A DNA stretch of 63,531 bases, the filler included, from Aduncisulcus paluster (Eukaryota): NCBI GenBank assembly GCA_024181965.1. It is 9 parts of 9 records of this genome, joined end to end, with 100 filler letters (N's around TTAATTAATTAA, not from the genome) between each part and the next. Parts side by side here need not be neighbours in the genome. Positions count along the whole stretch, not along the records: positions 29,966 to 55,409 come from BQXS01009742.1; 8 more parts are not named here. One strand, given 5' to 3'. The translations under genes were made by a program, and so were the position numbers. The notes under the pieces were generated by a model. That model was not told the origin of the DNA, did not search any database, and was given only the letters and a program-made list of their open reading frames with translations. Below, in pieces: positions 4,394 to 63,531 of this stretch; within the stretch, counting starts at the first letter, position 1; each line of letters opens with the position of its first letter.

Positions 4394-7300
4394 ATGAAAA
4401 GTATCGGAAAAACAGAAAATCATATCAATTCAACTTCAAAAAGGGGTTCAAAGAAAGGAAAAGAGAAAGAATGTTCCACAAAACCTGGATTAGATCCCAA
4501 AAGTTCAAAAAAGATCCCTGAATCAATTTTATTTGACTACACAGAAGGGAAAGATTGTTATTATTGTGCTCAATGTCATGCTAAGTTTTCTAGCATTAAC
4601 AAAATGCAAGCCCATGCAAAGATTGAAAACCATAAATCCTTTGCTTGCTCAAAACCAGGATGTTCTAGTTCTTTTGACCGGAAATGTAGTCTAACCCTTC
4701 ATATTAATTCTGTTCATGGATCTAAAAAACATGAATGCACCATTTGTGGGAAATATTTTACTCAAAAGGGTCATTTAACCAGGCACATCCGCTCAGTCCA
4801 TGAATCTAAAACTCAATATGGGTGTCCATTATGTGATTATTCAACTATTCATATCGGCAACCTCCATCGACATCACATTTCCAATCATACTCCTTTCTTT
4901 CCATATGTTTGTTCTATATGTGGTGAATCATTTGCTGTTGAAATTAATTTAGCCAGACACATCAAGAAATCACATCCCAAACTCTCATCTCTGACCCATA
5001 AAAAGCTATTTATTCCCAACAATCCCGAGAAATATGTTCCAGCCCCCCTTCTCCCCTTACTTTCCAATGCACCACTCTGCCCATGTTGTCTTTCTCCATC
5101 GTGTTGTGAAGAAGTCAGAGTGTGCACAAATTGCTGTGGTCGATTCCATTTCAGATGCTGTCTCCGAGATGGTTCCATGTTTGTCACCAACACTTGTAAT
5201 TCCTGCTCTTCGATGAGACAAATGGTCCAACTCCAGCCCTTTAATGCGTTATCAAGCCATATCCATGCACTCAGATGTTCTGAAGTCTCATCCAAACGTT
5301 CCACGTCCCATGTCTCTGGGTCTGGGTCTGATAGTTTCTTCCATCCTTGGAGTGAGTACAGTATCTCTGTTCCATCTTCAGCCACCGACACATTCTCATT
5401 TGGCGACAACAAGTATGATTCCACGAGTAATTGTAGTCACATATTCCTTGATTTCCAGCCTTCATCCGTTCCGTTACAAACAGTGTCCACATTCCCACAT
5501 CAGGGTCGAGAATTCACGTGTGTCCCCATGCTTCGTCCAGGGACAAAGAAGAACACGATTGTTTTCTCCCTCTTCCTCCCTGAGATCTCTGTTGATGCTG
5601 CCATCGCTTCCTTGAACCAGCGTTGTGTGAGAGTGAGTGAATTGGGTTTCAACAACACAATCTATCTCCCTCTTGATGCTAAGAGTAACAAATGGTTCAA
5701 GTCTGTCCGTCACAGTGACACTCCCTCGTGTGCTCTGATTGCTGTGGATTCCAGGGTTGCCATGTTCATTCAAAGACTGAGAGAAGAGCTGAGTGTGGGT
5801 GAGTTGGAGGAATATGCAAAGAAAAGTGAAGAGAATGTCCTTAAACCATGGTTGTATGAAGAGATCAAACTCAATGGAAAGAAAGGGAAAGGAACAATGG
5901 GGAAACCTGATCATCACGCTCCAGAAGTGTTCACTGTCGATTGTGTCTTCTCTGAACAACGCTTCACTCCTAGATCCTTCACCCTCCCTTCTGTCCCATC
6001 TGTCCATTCCCTCCAAAGAGCTTACTACGAGTGGAGAGTGTGTTGTGAAGTGTTCGGGAATATTCATATCATATCCTTACTCGCATTAGGATGTGTTCTT
6101 GTCCAGGTCTGTGTCAGAGAGTCTCAAGTGAGTGCAAGAGAAGTGGACAAGTACAAATCCATGACTCATGAAAGCCCACATAAGAGTTCACATAAGAGCT
6201 CACATAAGAGCTCACGCAAGAGACGAGAGTTAAGGCAAAAGCTCAAGGAAGGTGGAAGACAGATGTTGGATCCAATTCCACATGATTGTGTCTTCCCTGA
6301 GACAGAATCAGACCTTTCTCTCTTCCTCTCCTCCTCTTCTTCAGACAGATCAATGTTCAAATCTCTCTCACATGCGTATTCCTATCTTTCTCATCCTGCA
6401 ACTATTTTGGGAGAGGTTGTTCGAGGCATGTGGAAGGACTTTGTGCATGATGAGTGTGAGGCTGGAGTTTACACAGGCCGTGTCATGAAGGTTATGGTGG
6501 TTTCCTTGAGTAATGTTAGTGATACGACTCCCAAGGCATTCACTCTTGACTTTGGATGGAGATATTCCAACGAACGTAGACATGTAGTTGTTGAAAAGAA
6601 TGGTGATCATGGTCGTCAGAGAAGGATTCCTGTGAAAGATATCCATGAGCTCTCCAAACAACCCATTGATCCGGATGACTATTCCTCAGATCTTATCGAA
6701 CAAATCAGATCCTCACATTTAGCTGTCAAAGATATTCCTCTCTACACTGACCTGCACTCTGATTGCTCACATATCTCTGGTGGTGTGGACTCGGATATAT
6801 CTATTACTTCAGCCACAGTGCTCACTCGTGATGGCTACTACCGTCTCCATCCTGTCCAATCCCTGCTTGATGCTCCTCTCTTGCACCCAATCCATCCGAG
6901 GCCTGTCTATTTGTCCAGACCTTCGACACAGTACCTTGACTTCACGGCTGCTTCTGTCTTCTTCTCCATGCTCATGTCTCCTTATTGTCTCTGTTTCCAT
7001 CCCCACAGTGGTCAAAGGATGATAGAAACATTCGGAGTCAAATACTGGTATATCTCAAAGGATTATACTGCCCATAGAACATCCTCCTCTCCTTCTACTT
7101 CTACTTCTCCCTCTTNNNNNNNNNNNNNNNNNNNNCTTCACGGCTGCTTCTGTCTTCTTCTCCATGCTCATGTCTCCTTATTGTCTCTGTTTCCATCCCC
7201 ACAGTGGTCAAAGGATGATAGAAACATTCGGAGTCAAATACTGGTATATCTCAAAGGATTATACTGCCCATAGAACATCCTCCTCTCCTTCTACTTCTAC

Positions 7301-8284: not shown

Positions 8285-11200
8285 TTAGTAGAGACGTTCT
8301 TTGTTTTCAATGTAATCTAAACAAAATCCAAAAAGAGATAAATATTTTTCTTTTACCGATTCAAGATATTTTGGAGGTTTTAACTTAAATGTCTCGATTT
8401 GGTCAGTTATTTTCCTTACTTTGAGCACAAAGAACTCGATAGTTTGGTCAATTTCTTTTGTTGTTGGCCAATCCTGAATCAAAGAAATACAAGTTAACAA
8501 TAAAAATCCAATAAAAAGTATAATTTGCAAAAATTTTAAACAAAAACGAACTCTTTTAATTCGTTTTTCCTTTTTCAAAGTTAAAGAAACATTAATATTT
8601 TTAATATAAATGTCTTTCAATAAATTATCACCTAAAAGCTGATTGTTGATTTCTTTTTGTTGATTAAAGGATGAAATAAGATCCGATTGTTCCACTTTTA
8701 AAGTTTTAATTTCAGAATCTTGTCGATATTTTTCAGATCGAAGAGAATCAAGTTCAGTTCGAAGAGAATCAAGCTCTGATTCGTATTTTTGGGAAGAAAT
8801 AACTGAATTCTGAACAATTTTATCACGTTCAAGTGTCATGGCATCAAGTTTAAATGAAATATCCTGGATTTTACCTTCAGATAATGTCAATTCTTCCTCT
8901 TTTCTTTTACAAACATCGCCCAATGTGGTAAGTTCAGCCTCAATTTCTCGAGATTTCGAGTCAAGCATTGAAATTTCAGACAGAGTTTGTTGATATTTCT
9001 TCTCAAGATCAACTTTCTCAGAATGCAATGAGGCTTTGCTTGATCGTTCCAAAGATAGATTGTGAGAAAGAGTTGAGATAGATGTTGAGAGTTCATTGAC
9101 AGAAGCTTTAAGAGCATCATTTTCACATCTTAAAGAAGCAATTGTCTGTTCCATCTCCTCTTCTTTCTCTTTCCTCCTCTTTTCTTCTTCCTCTTTCTCT
9201 CTTTCTCTCTTCCTCTCTTCCTCTTCTTCTTCTTCAGCTACTTCTACTTCTTCTTCTTCAGCTACTTCTTCTTCTTCTTCTTCAGCTACTTCTACTTCTT
9301 TTTTAGATGAACTTGGATTTGGTGGTGAATTAGAAGGAGAAGGAGGGAATATCGTATGGAAAGTCGATAAAACAGATGATGGCGAGCCAGGAGTCATCGA
9401 AATATTATTATTATTCATCCCTTTCTCTCTTTCTTTCTCAGTTTCTATATTTGGAGTATGAGGGTTGTCAACTATCAAAGATGACGATTGAAGGGGACTT
9501 GAGGCAACCATTATTATTTCTGAAGTGGCTCCAATGTCAAGACTAGTGCCTATGGAAGAAGGGGAAGAAGGTTTCAAGCTTGACTGATCGTATTTATCTT
9601 NNNNNNNNNNNNNNNNNNNNGTTGATATTTCTTCTCAAGATCAACTTTCTCAGAATGCAATGAGGCTTTGCTTGATCGTTCCAAAGATAGATTGTGAGAA
9701 AGAGTTGAGATAGATGTTGAGAGTTCATTGACAGAAGCTTTAAGAGCATCATTTTCACATCTTAAAGAAGCAATTGTCTGTTCCATCTCCTCTTCTTTCT
9801 CTTTCCTCCTCTTTTCTTCTTCCTCTTTCTCTCTTTCTCTCTTCCTCTCTTCCTCTTCTTCTTCTTCTTCAGCTACTTCTACTTCTTCTTCTTCAGCTAC
9901 TTCTTCTTCTTCTTCAGCTACTTCTACTTCTTTTTTAGATGAACTTGGATTTGGTGGTGAATTAGAAGGAGAAGGAGGGAATATCGTATGGAAAGTCGAT
10001 AAAACAGATGATGGCGAGCCAGGAGTCATCGAAATATTATTATTATTCATCCCTTTCTCTCTTTCTTTCTCAGTTTCTATATTTGGAGTATGAGGGTTGT
10101 CAACTATCAAAGATGACGATTGAAGGGGACTTGAGGCAACCATTATTATTTCTGAAGTGGCTCCAATGTCAAGACTAGTGCCTATGGAAGAAGGGGAAGA
10201 AGGTTTCAAGCTTGACTGATCGTATTTATCTTGATCTTGATGGGTAGTTGTTTCGGTCTCTTGTTTTTCTGAAGAAGGAGAGACAAGAATAGCTGAGCCA
10301 TCAATCGGTGGGCTTTGAAGCGTAATATCATCAAATTCCTCCTCTTCCTCAGCCTCTATTCTCTCTCTTCTTTCCTCTGTTGTCAAAGAGAACGATAAAC
10401 CCTCTTCATCTTCACCCTCTTCATCGACTGCACAAGTAGAAGATATAGAACAGATTTCATCGTAGATATCTACGGGAATGTCCATCAAATGCCCATCAAC
10501 ATCAGGGATAGTAGACACATCAGTGGTAGAAAATATCTGATCATTCGCAATATAATATTGAGTAACAAGAATACTGTTTGTACTCTTGGATATTGGAGCC
10601 ATATCTCCTATATCATCTGTTGTTCCACCTCCACGTGTTGAAGAGTGACAAACCGAAATGTTCCAGCCATCATTATCGGTTGTAGACGGTATTCCGGTTG
10701 TAGACGGTATTCCGGTTGTGGCCGAGGGGAATTGGAACATGTTGATGTGTCTGATTACATAAAGACCGTCGGGCTGCATCACTACATGATCAGCACATTT
10801 ATCTGTGGTTTCACATGAGTCTAATACGTGGAATTGTCCCTGAGAATCCACTTCAATGCCAACAATAGAAGTGTCTTGCGTAACTTCATCCTGTCGCAGT
10901 ATCTTGGCCTCAAGATCGATGACTAATTGCACGGCTCCACATGGAATTCCAGTCGCTTCATCCCAAATTCCTATGGTGCATTTCTCTATTGTTGTTAAGC
11001 TTGGTGGAAACGTTTCATCGACGATTGCAGAAGAAGAAGAGGAAGAGGAAGAAGAGATAGTGGTTATGGAAGAAGGAGATGTTGATGATATCTCTGTTTT
11101 GCTTCCATGACGTAGATTATCTCCTTTCTTATTACTACTAACGTTACAACTCCTACCCTTTCCAAATGAGGAGATGCAAGCGAAGGTTGAATCATTTGGG

Positions 11201-14390: not shown

Positions 14391-15615
14391 ATGGTACGAG
14401 TTCACCTTTATACTTGCCAAAAGCTACTGTTTTACTATCAAACAAAGGGAGTTGATGAATTTCCTGAAGATTTACTAAAAATAATCACAAAATATTGTAT
14501 GTCTTGATTTACATCTTTATTCTATTCCTGAAGCCAATATATTTATTCTTAAATTTGTTTTATTAATATTTTTGTTGATTTTAGTGATGGTTCCCTTCTA
14601 TATAAGTGCTTGTTCACAACTTGGTTTGGAAAAAGATGAAGAATTGATCAAGAAATTGTTAAAGAAGCAAGAAGAGAAGGCCGATAAAATAAGAGACAAA
14701 ATTAAATATGCAGAAAAGAATTATGGTGATTCTGAAGTGACAGATGCAAAACACAAACTTATCAAGTTATATATTGCTGCTACCGAGGGTGAGAAAGCTC
14801 AAGAAGTTGAAAAAGAAGTTAATCTTGAGAAAATGGCGACAAAATTGAGATTTGATGTGGCTATTTATCACGCCTCTATTGCTTTATGTACTCTTAATCT
14901 CTCTTCTCTTAAACATTTCATTTCTAAGGCTGAATTGTTAAAAGAACACATTGATTACCAACGTAAGAACAAATTAAGTCTCTTTAGAGGTCTTTTTGCT
15001 CTTATTACCCGTGACTTTTCTACTGCTGCTACCACTTTCCTTGAATGTCTTCCAACCTTCGATTCTGACGATGTTATTACTCACAAGGAGCTTGTTATGT
15101 ATGCTGTCATCTCTTCTCTTGTAGGGTTGGACCGTAAAGAATTAATTTCCAAATGTGCAAAGTGCAGTGATGTTTTGGCCATTCTTCCACGTATTCCGTT
15201 GCTTGAAACTATTCTCAACGGAATTGTTGAGTGTAAATATGATGGTATTCTTGGTAACCTTGTTAATTTGAGTGATTCTGTTATGAAATGGGATCCTCTC
15301 CTTGTGACGCATCGTTTTTACTTCTTTGACCATGTCAGATCAAGGGCTTTCTCCCAGTTTTTGTTTGCTTTCAGAACTGTCCGCATTGAAGTTATGGCTG
15401 GGGTGTTCACAATCACGGAGGATATGCTTGTTAGGGAGTTGATGAGACTGATTGTGTGTGGTCGTCTCGCCGCCAGAATCAATGAGACATCTGGATGTAT
15501 CGAAACAATTCGAATGTTGAAAAAGGGAATGCTTACACAAGAATTGATGGAAAAGGCAAGCGAACTGACAGAAAAGGTGGAAAGATTGGCAAAGGCTGTG
15601 GTATTGGAATGGTGA
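14391..15615 (+). CDS. RPN7: 26S proteasome regulatory subunit Rpn7 (PSMD6); exons 14391-14496 and 14585-15615
   Basis: Rpn7 motifs MVPFY, AEKNYGDSEV, DYQRKNKL..FRGL, RDF..AA..FLECLPTF and a PCI end (GRLAARINETSG). Removing the GTATGT...TAG intron 14497-14584 gives an in-frame N-terminus ...DLLKIITKYL-MVPFY. Confidence 0.93.
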
Positions 15616-17145
15616 TAGAAAGATATCCTGCAAAAAGTGGATTTCACTTCATTATGAAGTTAAAATAAACAATACTTTTAAATTGATAAATTTTATAGTG
15701 GATCCTTGCTATGTTTTTGTTCTGAGCTCCTGTTCCTTGCATCCAGTTTCCATGATGTGTTTTTCATTTCATATTAATTTTATAAAGATTCTTCAAAATG
15801 TAACTAAAGGCTTAATTCTTAGATTTTCCTGAAATTTCACTCGGAAAGATGAGATTCGTCTATTTGGATATATTCTTCTTAAATTGNNNNNNNNNNNNNN
15901 NNNNNNAAGTGGATTTCACTTCATTATGAAGTTAAAATAAACAATACTTTTAAATTGATAAATTTTATAGTGGATCCTTGCTATGTTTTTGTTCTGAGCT
16001 CCTGTTCCTTGCATCCAGTTTCCATGATGTGTTTTTCATTTCATATTAATTTTATAAAGATTCTTCAAAATGTAACTAAAGGCTTAATTCTTAGATTTTC
16101 CTGAAATTTCACTCGGAAAGATGAGATTCGTCTATTTGGATATATTCTTCTTAAATTGTCATTTAAAATCTTTTAATTTCACCTTTATTATCGAAACACT
16201 GAAGAAAAATGGTCTATTATTTTCTGGAGAAAGTTTTTGAAAGGTTTTCTCAACTAGATCAAATTATATTTGATTCTCATTGTAAATCTGCTTTCAAATG
16301 ATTTTTCATTTCATAAAATGGAGATTTCCTGTCAAGAATGTTTGTATTTTCCCCCTTTATTGTGGTCCCTGTTAATTTGCCAAATTAAATTTGGTGGTTT
16401 CAACCAATGATTTTTGAATCTATTCAATGAATTATCTTGAAATTTACTCCTTTTCTTGAAACTTACAGCGTATTTCTCCCATTGAACTGTGACAAATGAA
16501 CAACATTCATTGCCATACACCAAAAATAGAAATTCTAAAAATAGATTTGTATTTCTTGATTTGTTGGATAATGCCATAATATCTGATTGAAACTTCTCGT
16601 AATGTCATAATTTTGCATATTTTGTGATATTTGCTGTATTTTTATGGTCGGGTTGCTTTGATTCGCGATGGAAAGCTTATCTATCACAGAGCACAGAAAT
16701 GCCCATAATGCCACCATAGAGACAATTTTGGAATTGAAAAATGATAAGATGTGAAATGATATGTAAAAATATCAATTACATATCTAAAAATAGAAAATCT
16801 AAAAATAGATTATGACTTTCCAAATTGTTCTTGAATGTGTTCATTTATCATTTCTTTGGAATGAAAATGGAGGTATTTGATGAGTTTGAGATCATTGTTT
16901 CAGGGTTGGTTTATAAAACGAAAGTTAAATGATCCATCGAGCTTCATATATCCATATAATCGGCATTTTAATGTGAGAATATGTGGAATATTATATCGAG
17001 CTTTCATCGAAGTTTGTGCCAAATCATTTGCAAGAAAAGATAAAAGTTTTAATTTAAAACGATAGAAGCAAAACCATTGTAGAAAAATCTACTAAAATTT
17101 ATTCAGACTCATTTCCATCTGTTTTCTGGGAAAGACTTTTTCTTC

Positions 17146-44671: not shown

Positions 44672-47600
44672 ATGATGTCATCTGAAGATATCGAGAAAAA
44701 AATAGAAGATGAAACTGGTTGGAGGAGATACTTTGATCCAGCCAACAAAAGAAACTATTATTATAACTCCATATCCAAAGGGGCATCTGTCTGGCTTCCA
44801 CCAGGTGAATTTGTCACAAAAGCAAAAAAATATGGCTTAAAATTGAATGAAGAAGAAAAATCTTGCGTAATTTCATCTTCAGAAATGGCTGAACTTGCAG
44901 AAGCCTATCTACTCCAAAAGTATCATGATCCTACACCTCTGAACAGGATTTATGAGTGGAGAAAAGTCATTACACAATACAATTGTCAACCGTCATTGAA
45001 AGATGGGAAGGCTGATTTTTTGAATTGCGAGTCTAAACTGGATAAAGAAGAAAAATACTATTTGTTTCCTTCCAAACAAAAGAGAAGCCAAGAATATAAC
45101 AAATGGGATCAGGCAGCTTCTAAATTAGAGACATATAAGAAAAAGTTCATTGGACGTGCCAAGATCAAGTTTCATGAATTCTTAAAGAAATTTCTTACCT
45201 TTGTTCGTTATGATCCTGATGAGCGCAAATCATTTATCATCAAAGAGCACGTGGAACAAAAAGAATCATTTCTTCTTACCTTTTCATCAATTGAGCATCG
45301 ATCAAGCTCTTCTTGTACTTTGACAACCTCTGAAACGCCTGAGCTGAACGAATCCTATGAAAAACGGCTAAAATCGGCACTTCATACAGAATCTAACGAT
45401 AATATTGGCAAGTATCTATCCCCTTTCCACCCAGAATTCGTCCGTCAGCTTGAAGATGATTCTACCCTTCACCGTGCAGATTTCGTCACCCCTACGGTCG
45501 CTGCCCCTCTTTTGTCTCTTTACACGGCTTCAGATGTCCCCCATGGTGGAAAATTGACCTATCGTGAGTTTTTAAAGCACCCTTTATGCTCTGAGTGTAT
45601 TATGAAAATTATTGTTGAAGAAGTGAAGAAGTCTCCTCTGCANNNNNNNNNNNNNNNNNNNNTATCTATCCCCTTTCCACCCAGAATTCGTCCGTCAGCT
45701 TGAAGATGATTCTACCCTTCACCGTGCAGATTTCGTCACCCCTACGGTCGCTGCCCCTCTTTTGTCTCTTTACACGGCTTCAGATGTCCCCCATGGTGGA
45801 AAATTGACCTATCGTGAGTTTTTAAAGCACCCTTTATGCTCTGAGTGTATTATGAAAATTATTGTTGAAGAAGTGAAGAAGTCTCCTCTGCAAAAGCTTG
45901 ACGTTGGTTTGTACGATGAATCCGATGTTATCAAGAAGATTAAGGAAGAGATGGACACTGGTTGTGACCAATATCTCTCCTACACTGCATTCGCTTCTCC
46001 TGCAAATGCCCTTCCATCGAATCTCATCCCGTTTTGTATGGTTTTAGCTGAAACACTCAGAGAACCATGCGAACACACGACCTTGAACTTTTTGAAGAAG
46101 ATCCACCTTAAACTTGAGGGAGAAAGGGAGAATGCGAGAAAACTATGCTTAAATGTTTGTGAGAAAGTGTTGATTTCTATTTTTAGAAATCAAAAAGATT
46201 CTGAGAAAGAGATGGAATCATATTTGAAATTGAAGGAAGAAGCTGAGAAAGCCAAAGAACAACCAAAATCTGAAGAGTTGAAAGAAGATAAAGAAGAAGA
46301 GAAAGAAGAAGAGAAGAAAGAGGAGAAAGAAGATAAAGAGAAGGAGAAGAAGGAAGAGAGGAAGAGAAGGAAGAAGAGGAAGAAAAGGAAGAAGAGGAAG
46401 AAAAGGAAGAAGAGGAAGAAAAGGAAGAAGAGGAAGAAAAGGAAGAAGAGGAAGAAAAGGAAGAAGAGGAAGAAAAGGAAGAAGAGGAAGAAAAGGAAAC
46501 GGAGGGAAAGAAATTCATTGACGAAAAGAAAGAAGAGGAGAAGAAAGATGAAGTTTTTGATGAACAAAAGAAAGAGGAAGTGAAAGAAAAAGAAGAGGAA
46601 CAACAAGAAGAGAAAGAAGATCTCGCCATTCCTGAAATGTTCCCAATTCTGCCATATCCCTCATTTGTCCTTTTCCTGTGTTCTTTCCACCCTATTTCAA
46701 AACCTCTCTTTAGTTTCCTCAATTCCAAAGAAGTGGATCGTCTTTGGAAAGAAATTGAGAGAAAAGAGAAACTCCGTCAAGATCAACACAATTATGAGCG
46801 AGCCACAGATACTCTGAAAGAAAACCTGGCTGCATGGACAGGAATGCCAGCTGAAATTCTGAAGACTCGGATGGAAGAAGAAGAAAACGCTTGGAAACTC
46901 TCTGAAAAGAAGAGAGCCGAAGAAGAGGAGAAACAGCGTATCATCAAAGCATTGAGCGATCCTTTCTCACTTGAATTTGCCCTTCACGAGAAATCTGACC
47001 CTCTTTTGTTGTTGCATGAAAAACAGAAGAAAGAGGAAGAAGCACGTCAACAAGAAAAGGAAAAGTTACTCGCAAAAAGTCTTCGTAAATTGCGCAAAAA
47101 ACAAGCCACAATAATAACTGAGGCTGACGATTCGACCAACTCGATTGTTCCTGTAACCTCCGATGCTGATGTAACCTCCGATGTTGCTGATGTGTCTGAT
47201 GACATCGAGGTTTCTCTCCCGCCTCTTTCCTGTCTTTCTTCCCTTCAATCTTCCCTCCCTCAGCCTCTTCTGCTCCTTCTCTCCTGCTGCCGGACTGTGC
47301 TGTCCTCTGTGTCATGTGAGTGTGCAATCACTGGAAAAAGAAGATATAAGAGTAGGGAAGAAAGGATGGTCAAAGAGAAGAAGAGGAGAGAAGATTACGT
47401 TGCTTTACTATGTGAAATTGTATGTTCCTTATCTTTTCCGAAACCAATACCTGAGTCTGCCTCTGAATCTACTTCTGAGAAATTCAAGAAGGATTTGAGT
47501 GAATTACTGGTCAAACTGTATCCAAACCCTTCATCAACCCTCACTCGTCATCTTCGGGATTTCTTTGTGAAATCTTTGCGTCCAGTCATGCGGAAATATC

Positions 47601-48045: not shown

Positions 48046-49930
48046 ATGTCGTATCATAGGTATGGTGGAAGTAGACCGCAGAGGCCACCAGAGAGATGTA
48101 TACAGATTCAAGATGCAGTTACTGGTGTTTCTCCCCCGCCTTTTTTAGGAAAGCAAACATACCATCCAAATAACCCATCATTATTGGTAAATGGTGTCAA
48201 AAAGCATTGTCATACTGATTTTGAAAAAGATAATTCATTTTATATATATTTTAACAAGCTTTCATTTGGTCCTTTCCCACATCCAATATCCATACAGTCA
48301 ATATTTTGGAGGCTCGCTACAACTCCGAAGCATGGTCAATATCCATATATATTTCATTTTTTATTCTATACTGATCCCCCTGGGAAGACATCCCTTGCTT
48401 ACGATGAAGATGCCACTGTAATCTATAAATTTCCTTTTCGTGTTCCAGTTCTCTCGACCGATTGGTTTATTTGTCCAATTAAGCTCGATAATGTCCGTAA
48501 AATTGAAATGATAGGCGAAAGGAACTGGAAAATAGCCCTCCAAGTTCACCAAGGACCTCCACCCATTCCCCCACCCCCTGTGGATGAGGAAGAGGAGCTG
48601 GCCTCACTTAATGACTGGGGTAGACAAGTATATAGGCAGATAGCCATTTCATGCATTAGAATTGTGAAGTCTCGGCGAAGAGAGTCCTGGTCTTCTTATG
48701 ATTATCTGAAAGACAAAGAGGAAGAGGAAGAGGAGGAAGAGAAAAAAAGGCATGAAGTTGAGTTGAAGAGAAAGGAAGAAAGATCGAAAAAAGTAGAACA
48801 AAGAAAAGAGGAAGAGGAAAAAAAGAGGAGAGAGTTTGAGGATGAAAGGAGAAAATTGGAAGAAAAAATACGAAAAGAAAAGGAAGAGGAGAATAGGAAA
48901 AGAATTGAAGAAACAATTAGGAAAGAACTTGAAGAAAAAGAGGAAAAGAAAAGAAAAGAAGAAGAGGAAAAAAAGAGAAAAGAAGAAGAGAAAAGAAGAG
49001 AAAAAGAAGAAGAGAGGAAGAAGAGAAGAAGAAGAAAGAAAACGAAAGGAAGAAGAAAAGAAAAGGAAGGAAGAAGAGATAAGAAGGAAGAAAGAAGAGG
49101 TCAGAAGGAGGAAAGAAGAGGAAAGAAGAAAAGAAGAATTGAAGAGACTGTCTTCTCTTGAAGGAACCTTAACATCAGTGAAAGAAAGGGAAGAAGAGAG
49201 AGCGAAAGAAGAGAAGAAGAAATCCAAAAAGTTCAAAGAAATATATAAAAGCATCTCTGAAATTGAAAAATCCATCTCCAAAATTAAAGAAATTGACAGA
49301 ATGAAAAGGAGAGATTACGATTTGCATATCTCTGAGTTGACTCACAGTCTCACATCGCTTCGAGGAGAGGTGTTTATAACTCAGAAAGAGGAAAGAAAGA
49401 AACATACATTGGAATTGCAAGCTCAACAAGAAATGTTTAGGAGAATATTACTGAAATGTGAAGATTCCATTGAGAATCAAAGAAAACTATTTATAGATTT
49501 TGAGAAAAAAGTGAAAAATCAAGAGGACTTGTTGCGTTCTCAAATGGAATTTTACAAACTTCAATCCGAAGAACTCCAAAGTGAAAAAGACAGAATCCTC
49601 TCCAAAATGAAGATATTTGAAGTGAAATGGGAATCGCAAAAGAAGACTGTCGATTCTATTGTCAAAATCCAAGAAGAACAGGCTTACAAAATCCAACGCC
49701 ATTCTCAACAATTCCACGAAAGAAAAAGTGTCGAAGAAATGCTTCATTCCCAAATTGCCATGTCCTCAGCTTCTACAAGGAAAAGAAGATATTTCTCACC
49801 AAGTTCCTACATTGGATCACAGTTGTTGTCTCCTGGGACAAGTCCATCCTATGTCAGTCCTGTCCAGTCGGATAATACTCCAAGATTACCCATAATTCCG
49901 AAAGATAAGAGTGAAAAGGAAAAGCGTTGA
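48046..49930 (+). CDS. Hypothetical protein: N-terminal beta-rich globular domain plus long charged coiled coil; frameshift near 49010-49050
   Basis: ORFs 47971..49161 (ATG 48046) and 48836..49930 overlap in a purine run. Confidence 0.7.
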
Positions 49931-55004: not shown

Positions 55005-55194
55005 TGTTATATAAAATTATATAAAATAGTCCTTAAGGGCTATTACACTACTTTCTCCCACCTTTCCATATGTAAAAATAAGCGACGAAGGGAATCGAAC
55101 CCACGCAGCCAACATAGATAGTGGCACCCATGACCAATTGAGCTATAATGGTAATAATTTATAATTTTTGTTTTTTTATACGAATGGTATAACA
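55005..55194 (-). mobile_element. 3' LTR (190 bp) of an LTR retrotransposon whose interior runs off the contig end
   Basis: Termini TGTTATA...TATAACA (7-bp inverted repeat). On the minus strand it is preceded, 4 nt upstream, by a polypurine tract. Confidence 0.7.
55081..55152 (-). ncRNA. tRNA-like (pseudo-tRNA) Pol III unit inside the LTR
   Basis: A box TAGCTCAATTGG (T8=55145), B box GGTTCGATTCC (T54=55099), T5 run at 55078-55074; the acceptor stem does not pair. Confidence 0.7.
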
Positions 55195-55198
55195 TCGA

Positions 55199-55215
55199 TC
55201 TTCCCCCTCCTTCTT
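55199..55215 (-). promoter_or_regulatory. Polypurine tract (plus-strand primer site)
   Basis: AAGAAGGAGGGGGAAGA ends 4 nt before the LTR's TG. Confidence 0.7.
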
Positions 55216-55509
55216 GAAGAGAAATAAAAGTGAAGAGACAACCTTAACAGGCGAATTCAAAACCAACAGTCTAATATATATCTATGATATCCAATATTTC
55301 ACAATAATTGCTTCTTAATAACTTTTGAGAAATGCTCAGATTTTTCTCATCTAACAGAAGTAATAACATATAAAACACGAAGCTCCTTAGCTACAACCTT
55401 ATCAGTGTANNNNNNNNNNNNNNNNNNNNNNNNNNNNNNNNNNNNNNNNNNNNTTAATTAATTAANNNNNNNNNNNNNNNNNNNNNNNNNNNNNNNNNNN
55501 NNNNNNNNN

Positions 55510-57772
55510 CCTAAATATTTCCAATACAAGTGTGTCATCTCTTGTTGAAGCTGGAACTCTGTCAAACCTTGAGACGATCAAATTTCTTGATTGCCATGTT
55601 TCAGATCTCTCTCCATTGTACCATTTGTCGTCCCTCACATCTGTTCATGGAACTGGGAACAATATCTGTGTTGGTTCTGCAGAAACCATAGAAACGATCA
55701 AATTGAAGTTTGTCTCCCATGCCAGCCTTACGCTTGATCTTTGGACAACCTTAAGTACTGACCAAGCCTGTGAATGTTCCTCTGCTGACCTTGGAACGAC
55801 CCCTATCGCTGACAATCTTATATGCAGTGAAACGAAGCATTGGTCTAACACATGGTATGTTGTGTGTGCCAGTGATTCATTCACGTCATACACGTCTGCT
55901 GAGGACTTTACTTGTATCTCCCCTGCTAATGGGGATGGTACGTTTGGATGTACTGGAGGTTGTGAGTATGGTTATGAGTGTAGATATGATTCAACTTCAA
56001 ATTCAACATCGTGTCAGCAAGTAATAGTTGATGATATCCTGCACGATGTTATCTATAGTCTGTTTGGAGGATCCGACTTACATTGTGATACAACAGATCA
56101 AACATTCAGTGTTGCTTCCTTGAAAACTCTCATATCTGTAGAAGATGAAGATGGAAATGTCAGTCCAGAAATCAATACTAATTATCTTGAAGATTTAGTG
56201 AGTAATTTTTCTGGTATTGAACATGTTGGATTCATTACAAAAATGCAATTTTATAATCTTGATATCTCTGAAACGAAAGATCTTGAACCCCTATCAACAC
56301 TTTCTAATCTCAATTATCTCTTTCTGTATGACAGCATTCTTGCTGATTTGGTGGACCCGTTTGATTTGCCTGATTTCACAGGTCTTTCTTCCCTTGAAAC
56401 ATTATTTCTCCAAAATATGCCCTTAACTCTTCCTTCAGATCGGTATGTTCTTCCTTCTACAATTAAAGAATTGGGAATATATAATTCACCTACCGTTCAA
56501 GCTGGTTTTGATAAGAATGTTGGTTACGATTACTTGTCATCCCTTGAATATTTACAATTTGGAGGTGAGAATAATTTGATTACTTCCATTGAATCGTTAT
56601 CAGAGAATCAACTGTCCACTATCATCGGTTTTTACTTCGATGATTATCCCATTTATGATGGGTTTAATGATGTTATTTCTGAAATGACAAGTTTGATAAA
56701 TGTTCGTTTGGCTAATTGCAATCTGCTGACTATTCCTGATCTTTCAAATAGTGCTACTACTTTGACGTACCTTTCCATTTACTCCAATCCCGATATTACT
56801 TCCTTGGTTTCCTTAGCTGAAATGGGATTGTATTCGCTCCAAACTATAATTCTTTTCAGTTGTTCTATCTCTGATATATCCCCATTATATGACTTTCCTA
56901 GTCTTTCAGGTATTTCAATTATCAATAATAAGATCTGTTCTGGAACAAATTCAAGCTCAGATTTAATTGCCAAATTCACACAATCTTCTGTTAGGATTTT
57001 CACAGGATCACAGACCTGCGAATGTTCCTCTGATAGCACTGCAATTGGATACACCGATACCCCGATCACTGACAATATCGTGTGTAGTGAGACTGTACCT
57101 GGATCTGGTTCATGGCATTATGTGTGTTCCAGCCATAGTATTGCATCATACACATCTGTGGATACCTTCGAGTGTCTAGCTCCACTCAACACAGATGGTG
57201 AAACATATGGATGTTCTGGAGGGTGTGAGTATGGATATGAATGTAGATATGTTGATGAATTAACTCAATCCGCCTCTTCATGCTATCCTGTGATCGTCGA
57301 TGAGAACTTACATGCATATGTTGCTGATATGTTTGTGGATTCTGATGGAAATCCTGATTACACTCACAGAACAGATTCCACGCCTTCCCTTTTCAGTGTT
57401 GCTTCATTGAGAACCATTTCCTCCTCAACTCTGTCGAACGATGGTATTTCCCTTTCCAACTCTGATAGGTTTTCCTTGCTCGATGGAATTGAACATATTC
57501 GCTCTCTTACATCCATTTCGTTGCCATATCACAACTTTGTGAGTGCTAATCCATTGGGTTCTCTACATGGTCTTGAGTCCCTTTCCCTTGCCCATAACAT
57601 GTATGGTGCTCCTGAGGATGCTGGTGGGAATGCCATTGAAGGCTTTTCTGATCTGTCGTTCATCTGCTCCCTTCACTCACTCTCCACTCTGACCCTCTCT
57701 TCTGTCACTTCTGTGTCTGCTCTTCCCGACACTTCCGAGTGTGCTGATACGTACACCTCCTTGAGCTCTCTC
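55510..57772 (+). CDS. LRR surface protein with repeated Cys-rich modules, internal fragment
   Basis: LRRs (SDLSPLY.L.SL) alternate with two copies of a module C.CSS...DN..CSET...W..VC...GC.GGCEYGYECRY; open at both contig ends. Confidence 0.85.
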
Positions 57773-57872
57773 NNNNNNNNNNNNNNNNNNNNNNNNNNNN
57801 NNNNNNNNNNNNNNNNTTAATTAATTAANNNNNNNNNNNNNNNNNNNNNNNNNNNNNNNNNNNNNNNNNNNN

Positions 57873-58249: not shown

Positions 58250-59015
58250 TTGTTTTCAAAAAAACAAATTTCAGAAGTGTCATGTGAGTCACAAAATTTT
58301 GTTTCAATTGTGAATGAATATATAGTCAAAACATAATTATTCGTTATAAATTTATTAATCCTATGACTGCTCTATTGATAACATGTATTAATGGGATAAT
58401 TCAAACGGATCAAAAAACATGGAAACACCTTGCAGTGAAGTATAACACCAGGCAGGGGGAAAACAGATAGTGTTAAGAAGTTCCAAACCCGAGTTCAACT
58501 TGAACTGGACTTGAAGTCCCGATGGGGGAACGTATCCAGGTGAGGTCGTCGCTAGAAGCGCTTGGCTTAGAAGGGCATATGATAAATGAGTTAAGACATT
58601 TATCGTAAGAGACTCTTACTAAGTTGTTTAGTACTAGGAGTGTAAGAAAGAAAATATATCAATGATAGATAACGATGGACAGATGTTGTTCGGTTTGATC
58701 AAGACTGCAGTCTTAGACTGACTTTACTTTAAAGACACAAATATAGGAAACCACAAATCATTACCAGAAAATGTTGGAGGGGACCATTAACAACCAAGAG
58801 AAAGGTTTGCCAAACAAAAAGAAACAAATAGAAACGAATTACACAAAATGGCAGACAAATTATCAATTAGCTCAGAGAGCAACAAAAACATCCAAATAAA
58901 AACACCTGTTCCCACATAATCATCGGGAATGTAAGGAAAGTCACACTAAAAATGGGAATACTAACATCATATGAATAGCAATAACATTGCAGATAATGTA
59001 GAACTGTTAACTTGG

Positions 59016-59197
59016 TGTTATGGCCCAAAGATATTATTTTGTACGATTAGCTTGTTATAGTCTAATCGTTAAGGCGTCACCTTGGTGATTGCCTGGTTGT
59101 GGGTTCAAACCCCACCTTGTGTAATTTTATGAAAGTCTGTAAGGAAGACTACAGCCTTGTCATAAGAATGACGTGACAAGTATTGAAGAGAGTAACA
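59016..59197 (+). mobile_element. Putative 5' LTR (182 bp) of the Ty3/gypsy element
   Basis: TGTTA...TAACA termini, ending 76 nt before the gag ATG; size and layout match the LTR at 55005-55194. The partner LTR is not in the window. Confidence 0.6.
59051..59122 (+). ncRNA. tRNA-like (pseudo-tRNA) Pol III unit inside the putative LTR
   Basis: D arm GTCT/AGGC (T8=59058), perfect T arm GTGGG-TTCAAAC-CCCAC (T54=59104), T4 at 59125-59128; no acceptor stem or canonical anticodon arm. Confidence 0.7.
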
Positions 59198-59273
59198 TAT
59201 TATAGTAAATTGTGCTCACCACAAGAATTTTATTTTCCAGGAATATTACAAAATAGCTATTTTAGTTTTATTT

Positions 59274-60830
59274 ATGGAAGTTAAGGTTGTTTTACCAAGA
59301 TTAGCCACCGTGGGACGGGAGGCTTGGAAAAAATTTAAGGAACAATTCCTCAGTTATCAAAAACGAGATGAAGATGCTGAAATAAGGACGTATATGACTG
59401 ATACAGTCTGGACGATCTATCAGGCTCGGACAGGTTTGGCAGATGGAGAGGATTCCGATGTCATTCTTGAGGAAATTGATAAATTATACGGCATTACGAA
59501 CAGATTGACTTGTGTATATGCCTTGGAAGAATTTAAACTGAAAGGAATTACCGAAAAGGAGATCTCTGAGTATGTAATTAACTACCAGCGAGTGATTCGC
59601 TCGGTTACTACGTCTGTGGAGCGCCCTAAGGACGAACAAATTCAGAAATTATTTTTAAAAGGAATTATTAATCCTCGTTTCCGGACTAGAGTCGCGACAG
59701 GATTATCGACTGTTACAGAACCCGAGTTCACCGATGTTATTCGTATTGTGTTCGAGGAAGGTTTGACGGTTGAAGAAGATATCCAGGATATGGCTGGTTA
59801 TGTTACTTCAACTGGAACTACGAAACGTAAGAAAAAATGTCCTGTTTGCGGGAAGATCGGACATGACGAGAGAGATTGTTGGATAAAACACCCTGAGTTG
59901 AAGAAGAAAAAACGCTCTAAAGGTTCAACGGCACCTCGAAGACCGAAGAAACCTCTGTCTGAAATACAATGTTATAAGTGCAGAGAAATGGGCCATTATG
60001 CGAATAATTGTCCAAATGAGAAAAAAGATAGAGAAGAAGGCTCTATTAAAGCACTGGTGGGTGATGGATTACCCACGTATGAGATTATGATCTTTAATGG
60101 AAAAGATCCAAAGAAGACGGTGAAAGCATTGATTGATTCTGGATCGAGCCATTCAGTAATCAGTGAGGAAGTGTTAAGCAGTATGGGAACGGAACTCCAG
60201 CTATTACCTTGTGATGTACTGTTTCATCTGGCTACTGGTGAACCTATTCGTTCAAAAATGCGTGCCAGGATGACAGTCAGGATAAAAGGAGCCATGGGAA
60301 AGTTTTTGCGTTTTACTACCTGGTTCTATGGGATTCCGATGACTAAAGCTGCCACTCCTGTATTACTTGGCCGAGACTTTATTGAAGAAACAGATTGGAA
60401 TCACCTTGCTATTAGAGATCCCGTTGGTTCAACAGTTATTAAAGATGTAGCAGAAGATGGTCTGTTTGAAGACGAAATTAAAAGAGAGGAGGATTCATTG
60501 GTGGAAGGAATTGATAACGAAGAAATAAGAAAGCTTTTGGAGGAGTATGAGGTAGCCATTAAAGATGTAGAATTGTGTCGAGCTCGTCCGTTTAGGATTG
60601 AGTTGAAGGAAAAAGATGTAGTTATTTCCGATGTACCTCGTCGCTTATCACCTAAACGACGTGAAATCTTAGAACAATTACTACAGGAATTATTGGACAA
60701 GAAGTTTATTCGAAGATCAAAATCTCCCTACGCATCTCCAATTGTTTTGGTTCCAAAGAAAAATGGATCGTTTCGACTATGTGTCGACTATCGTGTATTG
60801 AACGAACATATTGTTCCTATTCGTTACCCA
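59274..60830 (+). CDS. Ty3/gypsy retrotransposon Gag-Pol (gag, two CCHC knuckles, aspartic protease, start of RT), truncated
   Basis: CPVCGKIGHDERDC, CYKCREMGHYANNC, LIDSGS, LLGRDF and SPYASPIVLVPKKNGSFRLCVDYRVLN, all in one frame. Confidence 0.95.
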
Positions 60831-60930: not shown

Positions 60931-63531
60931 CAATACAATCAGAATGCACAGAAGCAGCATCCATTCCTTCATCAACAACACATTGAGTTGTGGGGTAGTC
61001 AACAAGTGTATCGACACACGATGGGATAGAAGAGGCGGATTGTGAAGCATCGAGGGAGACACATGTCGGTGGAGCAGACGAAGACGAAGACGAAGACGAA
61101 GACGAAGAAGAGGAGGAGGAGGAGTTATAATCACGATAACTGAACAGGGCACACTCGACCTGATACTCATCACTCCACACTTCACGACACACAACATTGT
61201 CCGAGGGCGTCATGGAAGACAGAGCATCGGAACAGTGTGCACAATACGATGAATCTTGAGCAATCAAAGAATCACTGCTACCCACATTCACGGAGAGAGC
61301 TGGCGAAAGAGGGAACAGTGCAGCATACACAGTGTCGGACACATTGCACAGCTTGTTCTCACGCACGTCAAGCGAAGACAGACCAGAGATCGGGAACAAG
61401 AGCGAGATGTCCGTGAGACCATTCGAACGGATGGACAGGGTGGACAATGCAGGGAACATGCTGAGAGAACGCAAGGAAGTGTCACATAATCCAACAGAAT
61501 CCAGGATCAATGTCGTCAGAGAGGGCAGGGAGGACAATGTTGTCAGGGAGGAAGATAGTGTTGTGGATAAGGGGTTGCTGCTGAGGTTGAGCTCTGTTAA
61601 TGCATTCATGGAGGAGAGGGCAGAAATGTCTGAGATGTTGATAGTATCAAGATAGAGATTTGTCATTTTTGTCAATCCTGCAAGTGGGGAAATATCAGAA
61701 ATGCCGATGTTATATCCAAGGTTGAGATAGGATAATGATGTCAGAGAGTTCAAGGAAGAGATATCAGAGATATTATTATTATGAAGATATAAATTTGCTA
61801 ATTTCGACATCCCTGAGAGGAATGAAATATCTGAGAGAGTGTTTGAATTTAAATCTAAAGTAAGCAGCTCAAGTTTCTCAGAAAGAACAGAAATGTCTGA
61901 GATATTGTTTGTACCAAGGTACAAAATCGACAGCTTTGACATTCCAGATAGAGCAGAGATATCAGAAATAGCGTTTGATTGTAATCTAAGGTCAGTGAGA
62001 TTAGTGATGTTGACAAGAGGTGAAACATCTGAAATATTGTTTGAATAAAGATGGAGAGTCGTTAAATTTATCATTCCAGATAGAGCAGAGATATCCGAGA
62101 TGTTATTTTCATAGAGATACAGATATACTAATTCATCCATGTTTGACAAAGAATCAATGGAAATAATCTGATTATATCCAAGGTGTAAATATGTCAATTT
62201 CACCAAACTTTCCAATGAGCTCACATCAGATATTTGATTGTTGTACAAATGCAAATTGGTTAGATTCAACAATCCAGATAAATCCGAAATGTCAGATATT
62301 TGATTTGAATAAAGGTATAGAATATTCATATCATTCATTCCAGAGAGGGCAGAGATATCTGAGATATTGTTGTTGTAGAGATACAAATACTGTAAACTTA
62401 TCATGTTTATCAAAGAATCAATTGAAGCAATTTCATTGTATGCAAGATGCAAATATGTTAGCTTTGTTAGAGAATTCAAATAGGAGATATCTGATATGTT
62501 GTTCACCTGGAGTTCTAATCTCACCAATTCTTCCATTCCAGATAGAGCAGAGATATCCGAGATGTTATTGTAATGGATATACAACTCTGTCAATTGGAGT
62601 ATATTTGAGAGAGATGAAATCGATGATATTTGGTTATGTCCAAGATGAAGATATGTGAGATTGGAGATGTTGACAAGAGGTGAAACATCTGAGATACTGT
62701 TTGAATAAAGATATAGAGTCGTTAAGTTTATCATTCCNNNNNNNNNNNNNNNNNNNNCAAATAGGAGATATCTGATATGTTGTTCACCTGGAGTTCTAAT
62801 CTCACCAATTCTTCCATTCCAGATAGAGCAGAGATATCCGAGATGTTATTGTAATGGATATACAACTCTGTCAATTGGAGTATATTTGAGAGAGATGAAA
62901 TCGATGATATTTGGTTATGTCCAAGATGAAGATATGTGAGATTGGAGATGTTGACAAGAGGTGAAACATCTGAGATACTGTTTGAATAAAGATATAGAGT
63001 CGTTAAGTTTATCATTCCTGATAGAGCAGAGATATCCGAGATGTTATTTTCATAGAGATACAGATATACTAATTCATCCATGTTTGACAAAGAATCAATG
63101 GAAATAATCTGATTATATCCAAGGTGTAAATATGTCAATTTCACCAAACTTTCCAATGAGCTCACATCAGATATTTGATTGTTGTACAAATGCAAATTGG
63201 TTAGATTCAACAATCCAGATAAATCCGAAATGTCAGATATTTGATTTGAATAAAGGTATAGAATATTCATATCATTCATTCCAGAGAGGGCAGAGATATC
63301 TGAGATATTGTTGTTGTAGAGATACAAATACTGTAAACTTATCATGTTTATCAAAGAATCAATTGAAGCAATTTCATTGTATGCAAGATGCAAATATGTT
63401 AGCTTTGTTAGAGAATTCAAATAGGAGATATCTGATATGTTGTTCACCTGGAGTTCTAATCTCACCAATTCTTCCATTCCAGATAGAGCAGAGATATCCG
63501 AGATGTTATTGTAATGGATATACAACTCTGT
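60931..63531 (-). CDS. Internalin-like 22-aa LRR protein with a Cys-rich C-terminal cap, internal fragment
   Basis: Long run of LxxLxLxxNxISDISxL repeats; ORFs join through the duplicate 62477-62737/62758-63018. Confidence 0.92.

Follow-up and report, generated by a model that had tools for sequence, protein, structure and literature searches.

Is the 190-bp unit bounded by TGTTATA and TATAACA close to a contig end of Aduncisulcus paluster a long terminal repeat (LTR), and if so, why should an LTR hold the remains of a tRNA gene together with its internal promoter boxes? We approached these questions by computational analysis of the DNA in which the unit lies, 63,531 nucleotides in all and referred to below as the window. 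For A. paluster, a free-living fornicate metamonad, the sole genome sequence is a draft assembled with MaSuRCA from short reads; it comprises 25,863 contigs, the N50 is 4.6 kb, and the genome announcement comes without a transposon analysis (PMC9933649). The unit, called LTR2 here, is compared throughout with a 182-bp unit, LTR1, that lies 5' of a gag frame on another contig; the elements to which they would belong are called element 2 and element 1, respectively, and the features of both are collected in Table 1.

Table 1. Features of LTR2, LTR1 and adjoining sequence, numbered along the window.
Feature	Positions	Strand	Basis
Candidate 3' LTR (LTR2), 190-bp unit TGTTATA...TATAACA, 33% G+C	55005..55194	-	sequence reading
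Spacer TCGA, 4 nt, between LTR2 and purine tract	55195..55198	-	sequence reading
Candidate polypurine tract AAGAAGGAGGGGGAAGA, 17 nt	55199..55215	-	sequence reading
TATAAA words in LTR2 (positions 15 and 32)	55180..55175, 55163..55158	-	
tRNA-gene-derived module of LTR2, TTATAG...T5	55074..55148	-	promoter boxes, core alignment
A box of LTR2, TAGCTCAATTGG, tRNA positions 8-19; preceded by 49 nt of LTR2	55134..55145	-	
B box of LTR2, GGTTCGATTCC, tRNA positions 52-62, perfect 11/11	55091..55101	-	
T5 run of LTR2 (TTTTT), where a tRNA-gene terminator is expected; 69 nt to LTR end	55074..55078	-	
Element 2 interior, 3' end, up to contig end	55216..55409	-	frame scan
LTR1, 182-bp unit TGTTAT...TAACA, 5' of gag; comparison partner of LTR2	59016..59197	+	
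tRNA-derived module of LTR1, ends in T4	59055..59128	+	Rfam tRNA match
gag (CCHC knuckle), aspartic protease, start of reverse transcriptase (RT); Ty3/gypsy-type	59275..60830	+	domain and protein searches

The arrangement described in the original prediction is present on the minus strand exactly where it had been placed: a purine tract, then 4 nt, then the 190-bp unit. The two LTRs were also correctly said to lie on separate contigs, with separators (N runs and ttaattaattaa) at 55410-55509 and 57773-57872. LTR2 begins with TG and ends with CA, and its termini form a perfect inverted repeat of 7 bp (7/7; TGTTATA at 55194..55188, TATAACA at 55011..55005); LTR1 also has TG..CA ends, with termini that read TGTTA...TAACA. 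The sequence flanking LTR2 is TTCTC on the minus strand. On the other side, 194 nt of element 2's interior are present before the contig breaks; they consist of 20 open codons from the contig end, a stop, and then ~130 nt that are stopped in all frames.

Taken alone, the purine tract is weak evidence for an LTR, because purine runs are very common in the window: counting both strands, there are 80 of at least 17 nt and 218 of at least 12 nt. Only four runs of at least 12 nt, on either strand, lie within 6 nt of a TGTTA, and the run counts give a chance of ~1% that a purine run ends 6 nt or less from a given site. These figures bear on the alternative that the unit is not an LTR at all, but intergenic DNA with the decayed remnant of a tRNA pseudogene or of a SINE head, placed by accident between TGTTATA and TATAACA words and beside a purine run. 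Plentiful purine runs, an AT-rich sequence and a window without a second copy would all suit such an accident; yet a purine run so close to a given site is itself only ~1% likely, and the accident would have to coincide with a 7-bp terminal inverted repeat, TG..CA ends, the TGTTAT/TAACA termini and internal layout of LTR1, and a contig break in the supposed interior. We consider it highly improbable. The distance of 4 nt from purine tract to TG, the inverted repeat, the LTR1-like termini and the contig break in a mostly non-coding interior instead make a 3' LTR the best reading of 55005-55194, and we conclude that this unit is most likely the 3' LTR of an A. paluster LTR retrotransposon.

In the window, we found no second copy or solo LTR of either unit by blastn (word size 7) or by comparing the window with itself, and nhmmer profiles built from both alignments returned no further copy in the 63.5 kb. 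The LTR paired with LTR2 and the target-site duplication would lie beyond its contig. Exact strings of 28 nt from LTR2 and 30 nt from LTR1 are absent from a collection of bacterial and archaeal genomes, a result that has no bearing on the protist genome.

LTR1 is the unit that is tied to coding sequence. The reading frame behind it has no stop between 59196 and the contig end (545 codons) and contains a zf-CCHC domain, an Asp_protease_2 domain and the first RT motifs; the contig ends inside RT, ahead of where RNase H and integrase would follow. Searches with the gag-pol protein, in which the ~8000 candidates richest in shared words were scored, yielded 28 and 16 proteins at E ≤0.001; these relatives have RT-RNaseH-integrase domain sets and carry Ty3/gypsy names. 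Besides the window's own protein, the best matches are 27-30% identical over ~60% of the query. No Aduncisulcus paralogue was seen among the matches, the others being 24-58% identical over parts of the query. None of the six frames is free of stops across the ~760 bp upstream of LTR1 (58256-59015), nor was any feature recognised there; this stretch could be flank or an older degraded insertion.

The remainder of the window has some features of its own. Pure-purine runs of GAA/GAG type reach 165 nt within open frames (46335-46499, 48931-49042, 29700-29802 and many others), and some are alike between contigs (46365-46471 and 29700-29802, 85%); the long runs are low-complexity coding repeats rich in Glu, Lys, Arg and Gly, and polypurine tracts are poor LTR markers in this genome. 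Seven gaps of 20 N are present (1392-1411, 7116-7135, 9601-9620, 15887-15906, 33652-33671, 45643-45662 and 62738-62757). At six of the seven, the sequence before the gap is repeated right after it at 99-100% identity, as in 8989-9600 and 9621-10232 or in 45413-45642 and 45663-45892, which looks like unclosed scaffolding overlaps that artificially duplicate parts of reading frames. No adjacent duplicate was listed for the gap at 62738-62757; the matches to 62758-63531 (61995-62590, 62477-63135 and 63418-63531) do not abut it. Leucine-rich-repeat (LRR) proteins are encoded on neighbouring contigs at 60932-63531 (minus strand), with repeats within and between contigs: 62936-63531 and 61995-62590 are 98.7% identical, and a further LRR frame spans 55511-57772. 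These LRR repeats may reflect the recent expansion of a family, or else contigs that are allelic or duplicated. An RPN7-like frame at 14485-15612 is 100% identical to an NCBI protein of A. paluster, and the products of further long frames are likewise eukaryotic (Nup85, importin-like HEAT and LRR proteins).

Both LTRs contain a stretch that resembles a tRNA gene, to different degrees. The LTR1 module matches the Rfam tRNA model over model positions 8-63 with 22.5 bits, the family cut-off being 29; the E-value of 0.007 applies to 121 nt searched with 4227 families, and rescaled to the tRNA family alone over the whole window it becomes ~9e-4. The module has intact D and T arms, a shortened anticodon loop and no acceptor stem. 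For the LTR2 module, only 13 nt of the T loop were matched by the same model; its D, anticodon and T arms are degenerate, the T stem is mismatched, and here too the acceptor stem is missing. A scan of the window at Rfam gathering scores gave no match. From the box pattern, the Rfam scores and the null result of ARAGORN, we conclude that both modules are derived from, or resemble, tRNA genes while neither is one. In its middle, LTR2 holds a decayed module derived from a tRNA gene, which has lost the acceptor stem and most of its stem pairing and has kept the A and B boxes at tRNA spacing.

We rejected a functional tRNA gene as an explanation, given that ARAGORN finds no tRNA gene in the window and that neither module has an acceptor stem. 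Folding of the modules is no better than that of shuffled sequences (z = -1.0 and -0.4), and the same holds for the 69-nt 3' flanks of both LTRs (z = -1.5 and +0.7). Sequence derived from 5S rRNA was not detected in LTR1 or LTR2 by Rfam at E up to 10. A weak match to an rhtB-like hairpin was dismissed as a chance palindrome. In the 3' part of LTR2 there is a near-palindrome around CTTAAG (55025-55047, minus strand), and the 3' part of LTR1 holds a hairpin CTTGTCA...TGACAAG (59156-59180, plus strand).

Ty3-type elements insert next to tRNA genes, and the tRNA gene found there is an intact host gene outside the LTR. As in such insertions, a Ty3/gypsy-type element is here physically tied to a Pol III promoter; unlike in them, the tRNA-like stretch starts 49 nt inside LTR2, downstream of the purine tract, and is not a tRNA gene. 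With the purine tract on one side of the module and the terminal inverted repeat on the other, a tRNA gene that was merely beside the insertion is unlikely.

The closest precedent known to us is Helenus (Kojima 2024, Biology 13:119), a terminal-repeat retrotransposon in miniature (TRIM) with tRNA-like sequences in its LTRs that are not functional tRNAs (PMC10886601). Helenus has been described from Pucciniales, a few Agaricomycetes, six animal phyla and Selaginella, and is grouped with Cassandra and Ajax, both of which carry 5S sequence in the LTR, as 'TRIMp3' (PMC10886601). The resemblance to the A. paluster units is close: in both cases a tRNA-derived stretch lies inside the LTR, conservation is centred on boxes A and B, and there is no functional tRNA; the LTRs have TG..CA ends and are accompanied by a polypurine tract; and several families distinct in sequence occur in one genome (PMC10886601). 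In at least one Helenus consensus LTR, T4 runs closely follow the tRNA-like part, as LTR1 and LTR2 have T runs (PMC10886601, supplement). There are also differences. Helenus elements are non-autonomous and shorter than 1000 bp, with just a primer-binding site (PBS) plus a polypurine tract between two LTRs, whereas LTR1 precedes a gag-protease-RT frame of 545 codons; and in contrast to the fungi, animals and Selaginella from which Helenus is described, the host here is a metamonad (PMC10886601).

Cassandra resembles the A. paluster units in that a gene for a small RNA, including its internal Pol III promoter and its terminator, is embedded in both LTRs and conserved while the remainder of the LTR varies; the Cassandra module is, however, derived from 5S with a type 1 promoter, and the element is confined to plants and non-autonomous, whereas the module here is tRNA-derived with no 5S match (PMC10886601). 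A tRNA-derived SINE is the proposed source of the Helenus LTR module (PMC10886601), and the A. paluster modules are like the tRNA-derived heads of SINEs (SINE2), in which the A and B boxes are kept despite decay of the tRNA structure. Unlike SINE2, they have no LINE-type tail or A-rich end, and what adjoins them is LTR sequence, with TG..CA termini and a purine tract. Our literature search turned up neither a protist nor an autonomous element with such LTRs, and the passages of other Helenus papers that we consulted do not describe one. Autonomous examples that are unpublished or went unremarked may nonetheless exist, as Kojima notes that 'not a few' LTRs in Repbase hold tRNA-like parts (PMC10886601). 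The tRNA-in-LTR design itself is already known from the small Helenus elements of fungi and animals (PMC10886601); in A. paluster it occurs in a protist and is apparently tied to a protein-coding element.

The promoter boxes occur more often than expected by chance. A pattern of an A box, 28-50 nt and a B box has two matches in the 63.5-kb window, one in each LTR, and a mean of 0.01 in 200 dinucleotide shuffles, the A-box part of this generic type-2 promoter pattern having been loosened after LTR1 had been seen. The B box defined a priori, GGTTCRANNCC, has two matches by itself while 0.59 are expected, and two or more occur in 10.5% of shuffles. With up to one mismatch, GTGGGTTCNANNCCC is matched twice in the window (0.12 expected; two or more in 1 of 100 shuffles), and TTATAGNNNAATNG also has two matches, 0.20 being expected. 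The exact B box of LTR2, GGTTCGATTCC, occurs only once in the 63.5 kb, namely in LTR2 itself.

The comparison of the two LTRs speaks to where the module came from. The original prediction held that LTR1 has the same tRNA-in-LTR architecture, with little else shared, and in this respect it is borne out. The A box starts 42 nt into LTR1 and 49 nt into LTR2; in LTR1 the A-box T is at 59058 and T54 at 59104, and the spacing from T8 to T54 is 46 nt in both units. A T run follows, T5 in LTR2, and from its end to the LTR end there are 69 nt in each, the 8-bp length difference between the LTRs being located in the 5' part and the T run. Over their whole length, the local alignment of LTR1 and LTR2 is no better than that of shuffled sequences, 393 of 1000 of which reach the observed score. 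The 86-nt cores, however, align without a gap and are identical at 41 of 86 positions; random 86-mers of the window have a mean of 22.1 identities (sd 4.0), with a fraction of 4e-5 reaching 41 or more. Identity is higher in the module (39/74) than in the 3' flank (23/69; p = 0.015), and the cores also agree at positions that are not universal in tRNAs, namely TTA before T8 and GTG at T-stem positions 49-51. Within the core, the a-priori boxes (tRNA positions 8-19 and 52-62) have 15 of 23 identical positions as compared to 26 of 63 elsewhere (one-sided Fisher p = 0.042, from a single pair).

The universal nucleotides that form boxes A and B are common to any two tRNA-derived sequences, and two different tRNA genes share about as much identity as 41/86. 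The boxes common to both LTRs thus need not reflect selection inside the LTR, and the enrichment of identity in them, with p = 0.042 from two units, is marginal. The same position, the same orientation and the shared non-universal positions do speak for a single ancient capture that was passed on to both families, and against two separate ones, and we infer that the module was probably already present in the LTR of the common ancestor of the two LTR families. Of the original claim that the boxes are a selected family-level feature and not the product of chance insertion beside a tRNA gene, the second half is supported, such an insertion being unlikely, while it is not established that they were kept by selection.

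This raises the alternative that the module is a neutral passenger: a tRNA gene, pseudogene or tRNA-derived SINE, captured once or once per family, that is simply decaying, so that the boxes only look conserved. Much of what we observe would fit. The similarity of the cores lies mostly at universal tRNA positions, the enrichment in the boxes has the p value of only 0.042, and decay is evident in the destroyed acceptor stems, the shortened anticodon loop of LTR1 and the mismatched T stem of LTR2; Kojima likewise proposes that Helenus arose when a SINE inserted into an LTR (PMC10886601). A passenger is harder to reconcile with the identical position and orientation of the module between flanks of near-random similarity (69 nt in both; 23/69), which indicate one old capture and long retention. 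In LTR2, moreover, the stems have decayed, yet the B box is perfect at 11 of 11 positions and the A box fits the consensus, and agreement extends to the non-universal TTA before T8 and GTG at 49-51. We regard neutral decay as unlikely, while giving it appreciable weight.

We lean, by a modest degree, towards the view that the decayed tRNA module in this A. paluster 3' LTR has been retained as a type-2 Pol III promoter or TFIIIC site, in a manner like that of Helenus and Cassandra. In such a mechanism, TFIIIC would bind the B and A boxes and TFIIIB would be positioned upstream; each LTR would then act as a small tDNA and give rise to an RNA of ~85-95 nt that ends at the T run. In addition, or as an alternative, occupancy by TFIIIC could create a nucleosome-free chromatin boundary and keep the Pol II promoter of the element accessible. 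A Pol III transcript that began upstream of the A box would run into T4 (LTR1) or T5 (LTR2) ~10 nt past the T arm, and beyond the module, ten more runs of at least four T are found in the first 1.7 kb of element 1. Because of the T4 or T5 directly behind it and these ten further T runs, the module cannot serve as the promoter for a coding element's genomic RNA. Kojima sees the length of such elements as limited by Pol III and holds that a Pol II promoter is what their autonomous counterparts 'must use'; according to the same paper, Pol III transcription from the LTR is unproven for Helenus itself (PMC10886601).

One could also imagine that the module works within the genomic RNA, as a tRNA mimic that binds reverse transcriptase or nucleocapsid, that aids priming or packaging, or that primes the element itself. 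It has the same sense as gag, and Pol II transcripts would hence include it provided that U3, R or U5 spans it, and there is no canonical TGG-type primer-binding site after LTR1 (59198-59225, plus strand). The complementarity between the module and the sequence after LTR1 is, however, short and imperfect (at best 12-14 nt at 83-86%, 45 nt past the LTR end), the modules fold no better than shuffles, the stems of LTR2 are poor, and in Helenus, too, Kojima found module and PBS not to be complementary (PMC10886601). Shuffle-like folding together with unconvincing complementarity leaves a role as mimic or self-primer not supported, and we believe that it has very little chance of being correct. As for the sequence just past LTR1, a stretch TTATAGT... 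there is a same-strand repeat of how the tRNA-like module begins (59045-59061 and 59190-59206, 13/17). By eye its reverse complement resembles the 5' half of a tRNA, but the Rfam tRNA model has no match in 59185-59275 on either strand.

If the module is indeed retained as a Pol III promoter or TFIIIC site, the question follows of what kind of element carries it. For LTR1 the answer is a coding one; for LTR2 it may be different. Element 2 might be a short non-autonomous TRIM of Helenus type, moved in trans by an element like that at 59016-60830 with which it has the termini TGTTAT...TAACA in common. Such an element would account for there being only 20 open codons at the contig end and then a non-coding stretch of ~130 nt up to the purine tract, as well as for LTR termini shared with LTR1 while the remainder differs, a pattern described for pairs of TRIMs and autonomous elements (PMC10886601). 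On the other hand, the pol frame of an autonomous element may likewise stop 130 nt before the purine tract, and the interior is seen for just 194 nt up to the contig end. We consider a TRIM less likely than not. We tentatively propose, with more doubt than confidence, that there is a lineage of autonomous Ty3/gypsy-type elements in fornicate metamonads with a working Pol III unit of A box, B box and terminator in every LTR, kept across the divergence of LTR families.

LTR-embedded small-RNA genes (Cassandra, Helenus and Ajax) have so far been described only in miniature non-coding elements of plants, fungi and animals, where the module is taken to be the Pol III promoter from which the short element is transcribed as a whole. 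LTRs of this type can inflate or confuse the annotation of tRNAs and SINEs in protist genomes. If the proposed lineage exists, Pol III-promoter LTRs would not be confined to miniature non-autonomous elements, and the module would serve its element in a way other than by producing genomic RNA, for instance as a tDNA-like chromatin boundary or as a source of small regulatory RNA. Retention of the module on a coding Ty3/gypsy-type element would thus call for another role than that assigned to it until now, and this class of LTRs would gain in host range as well as in the functions ascribed to it.
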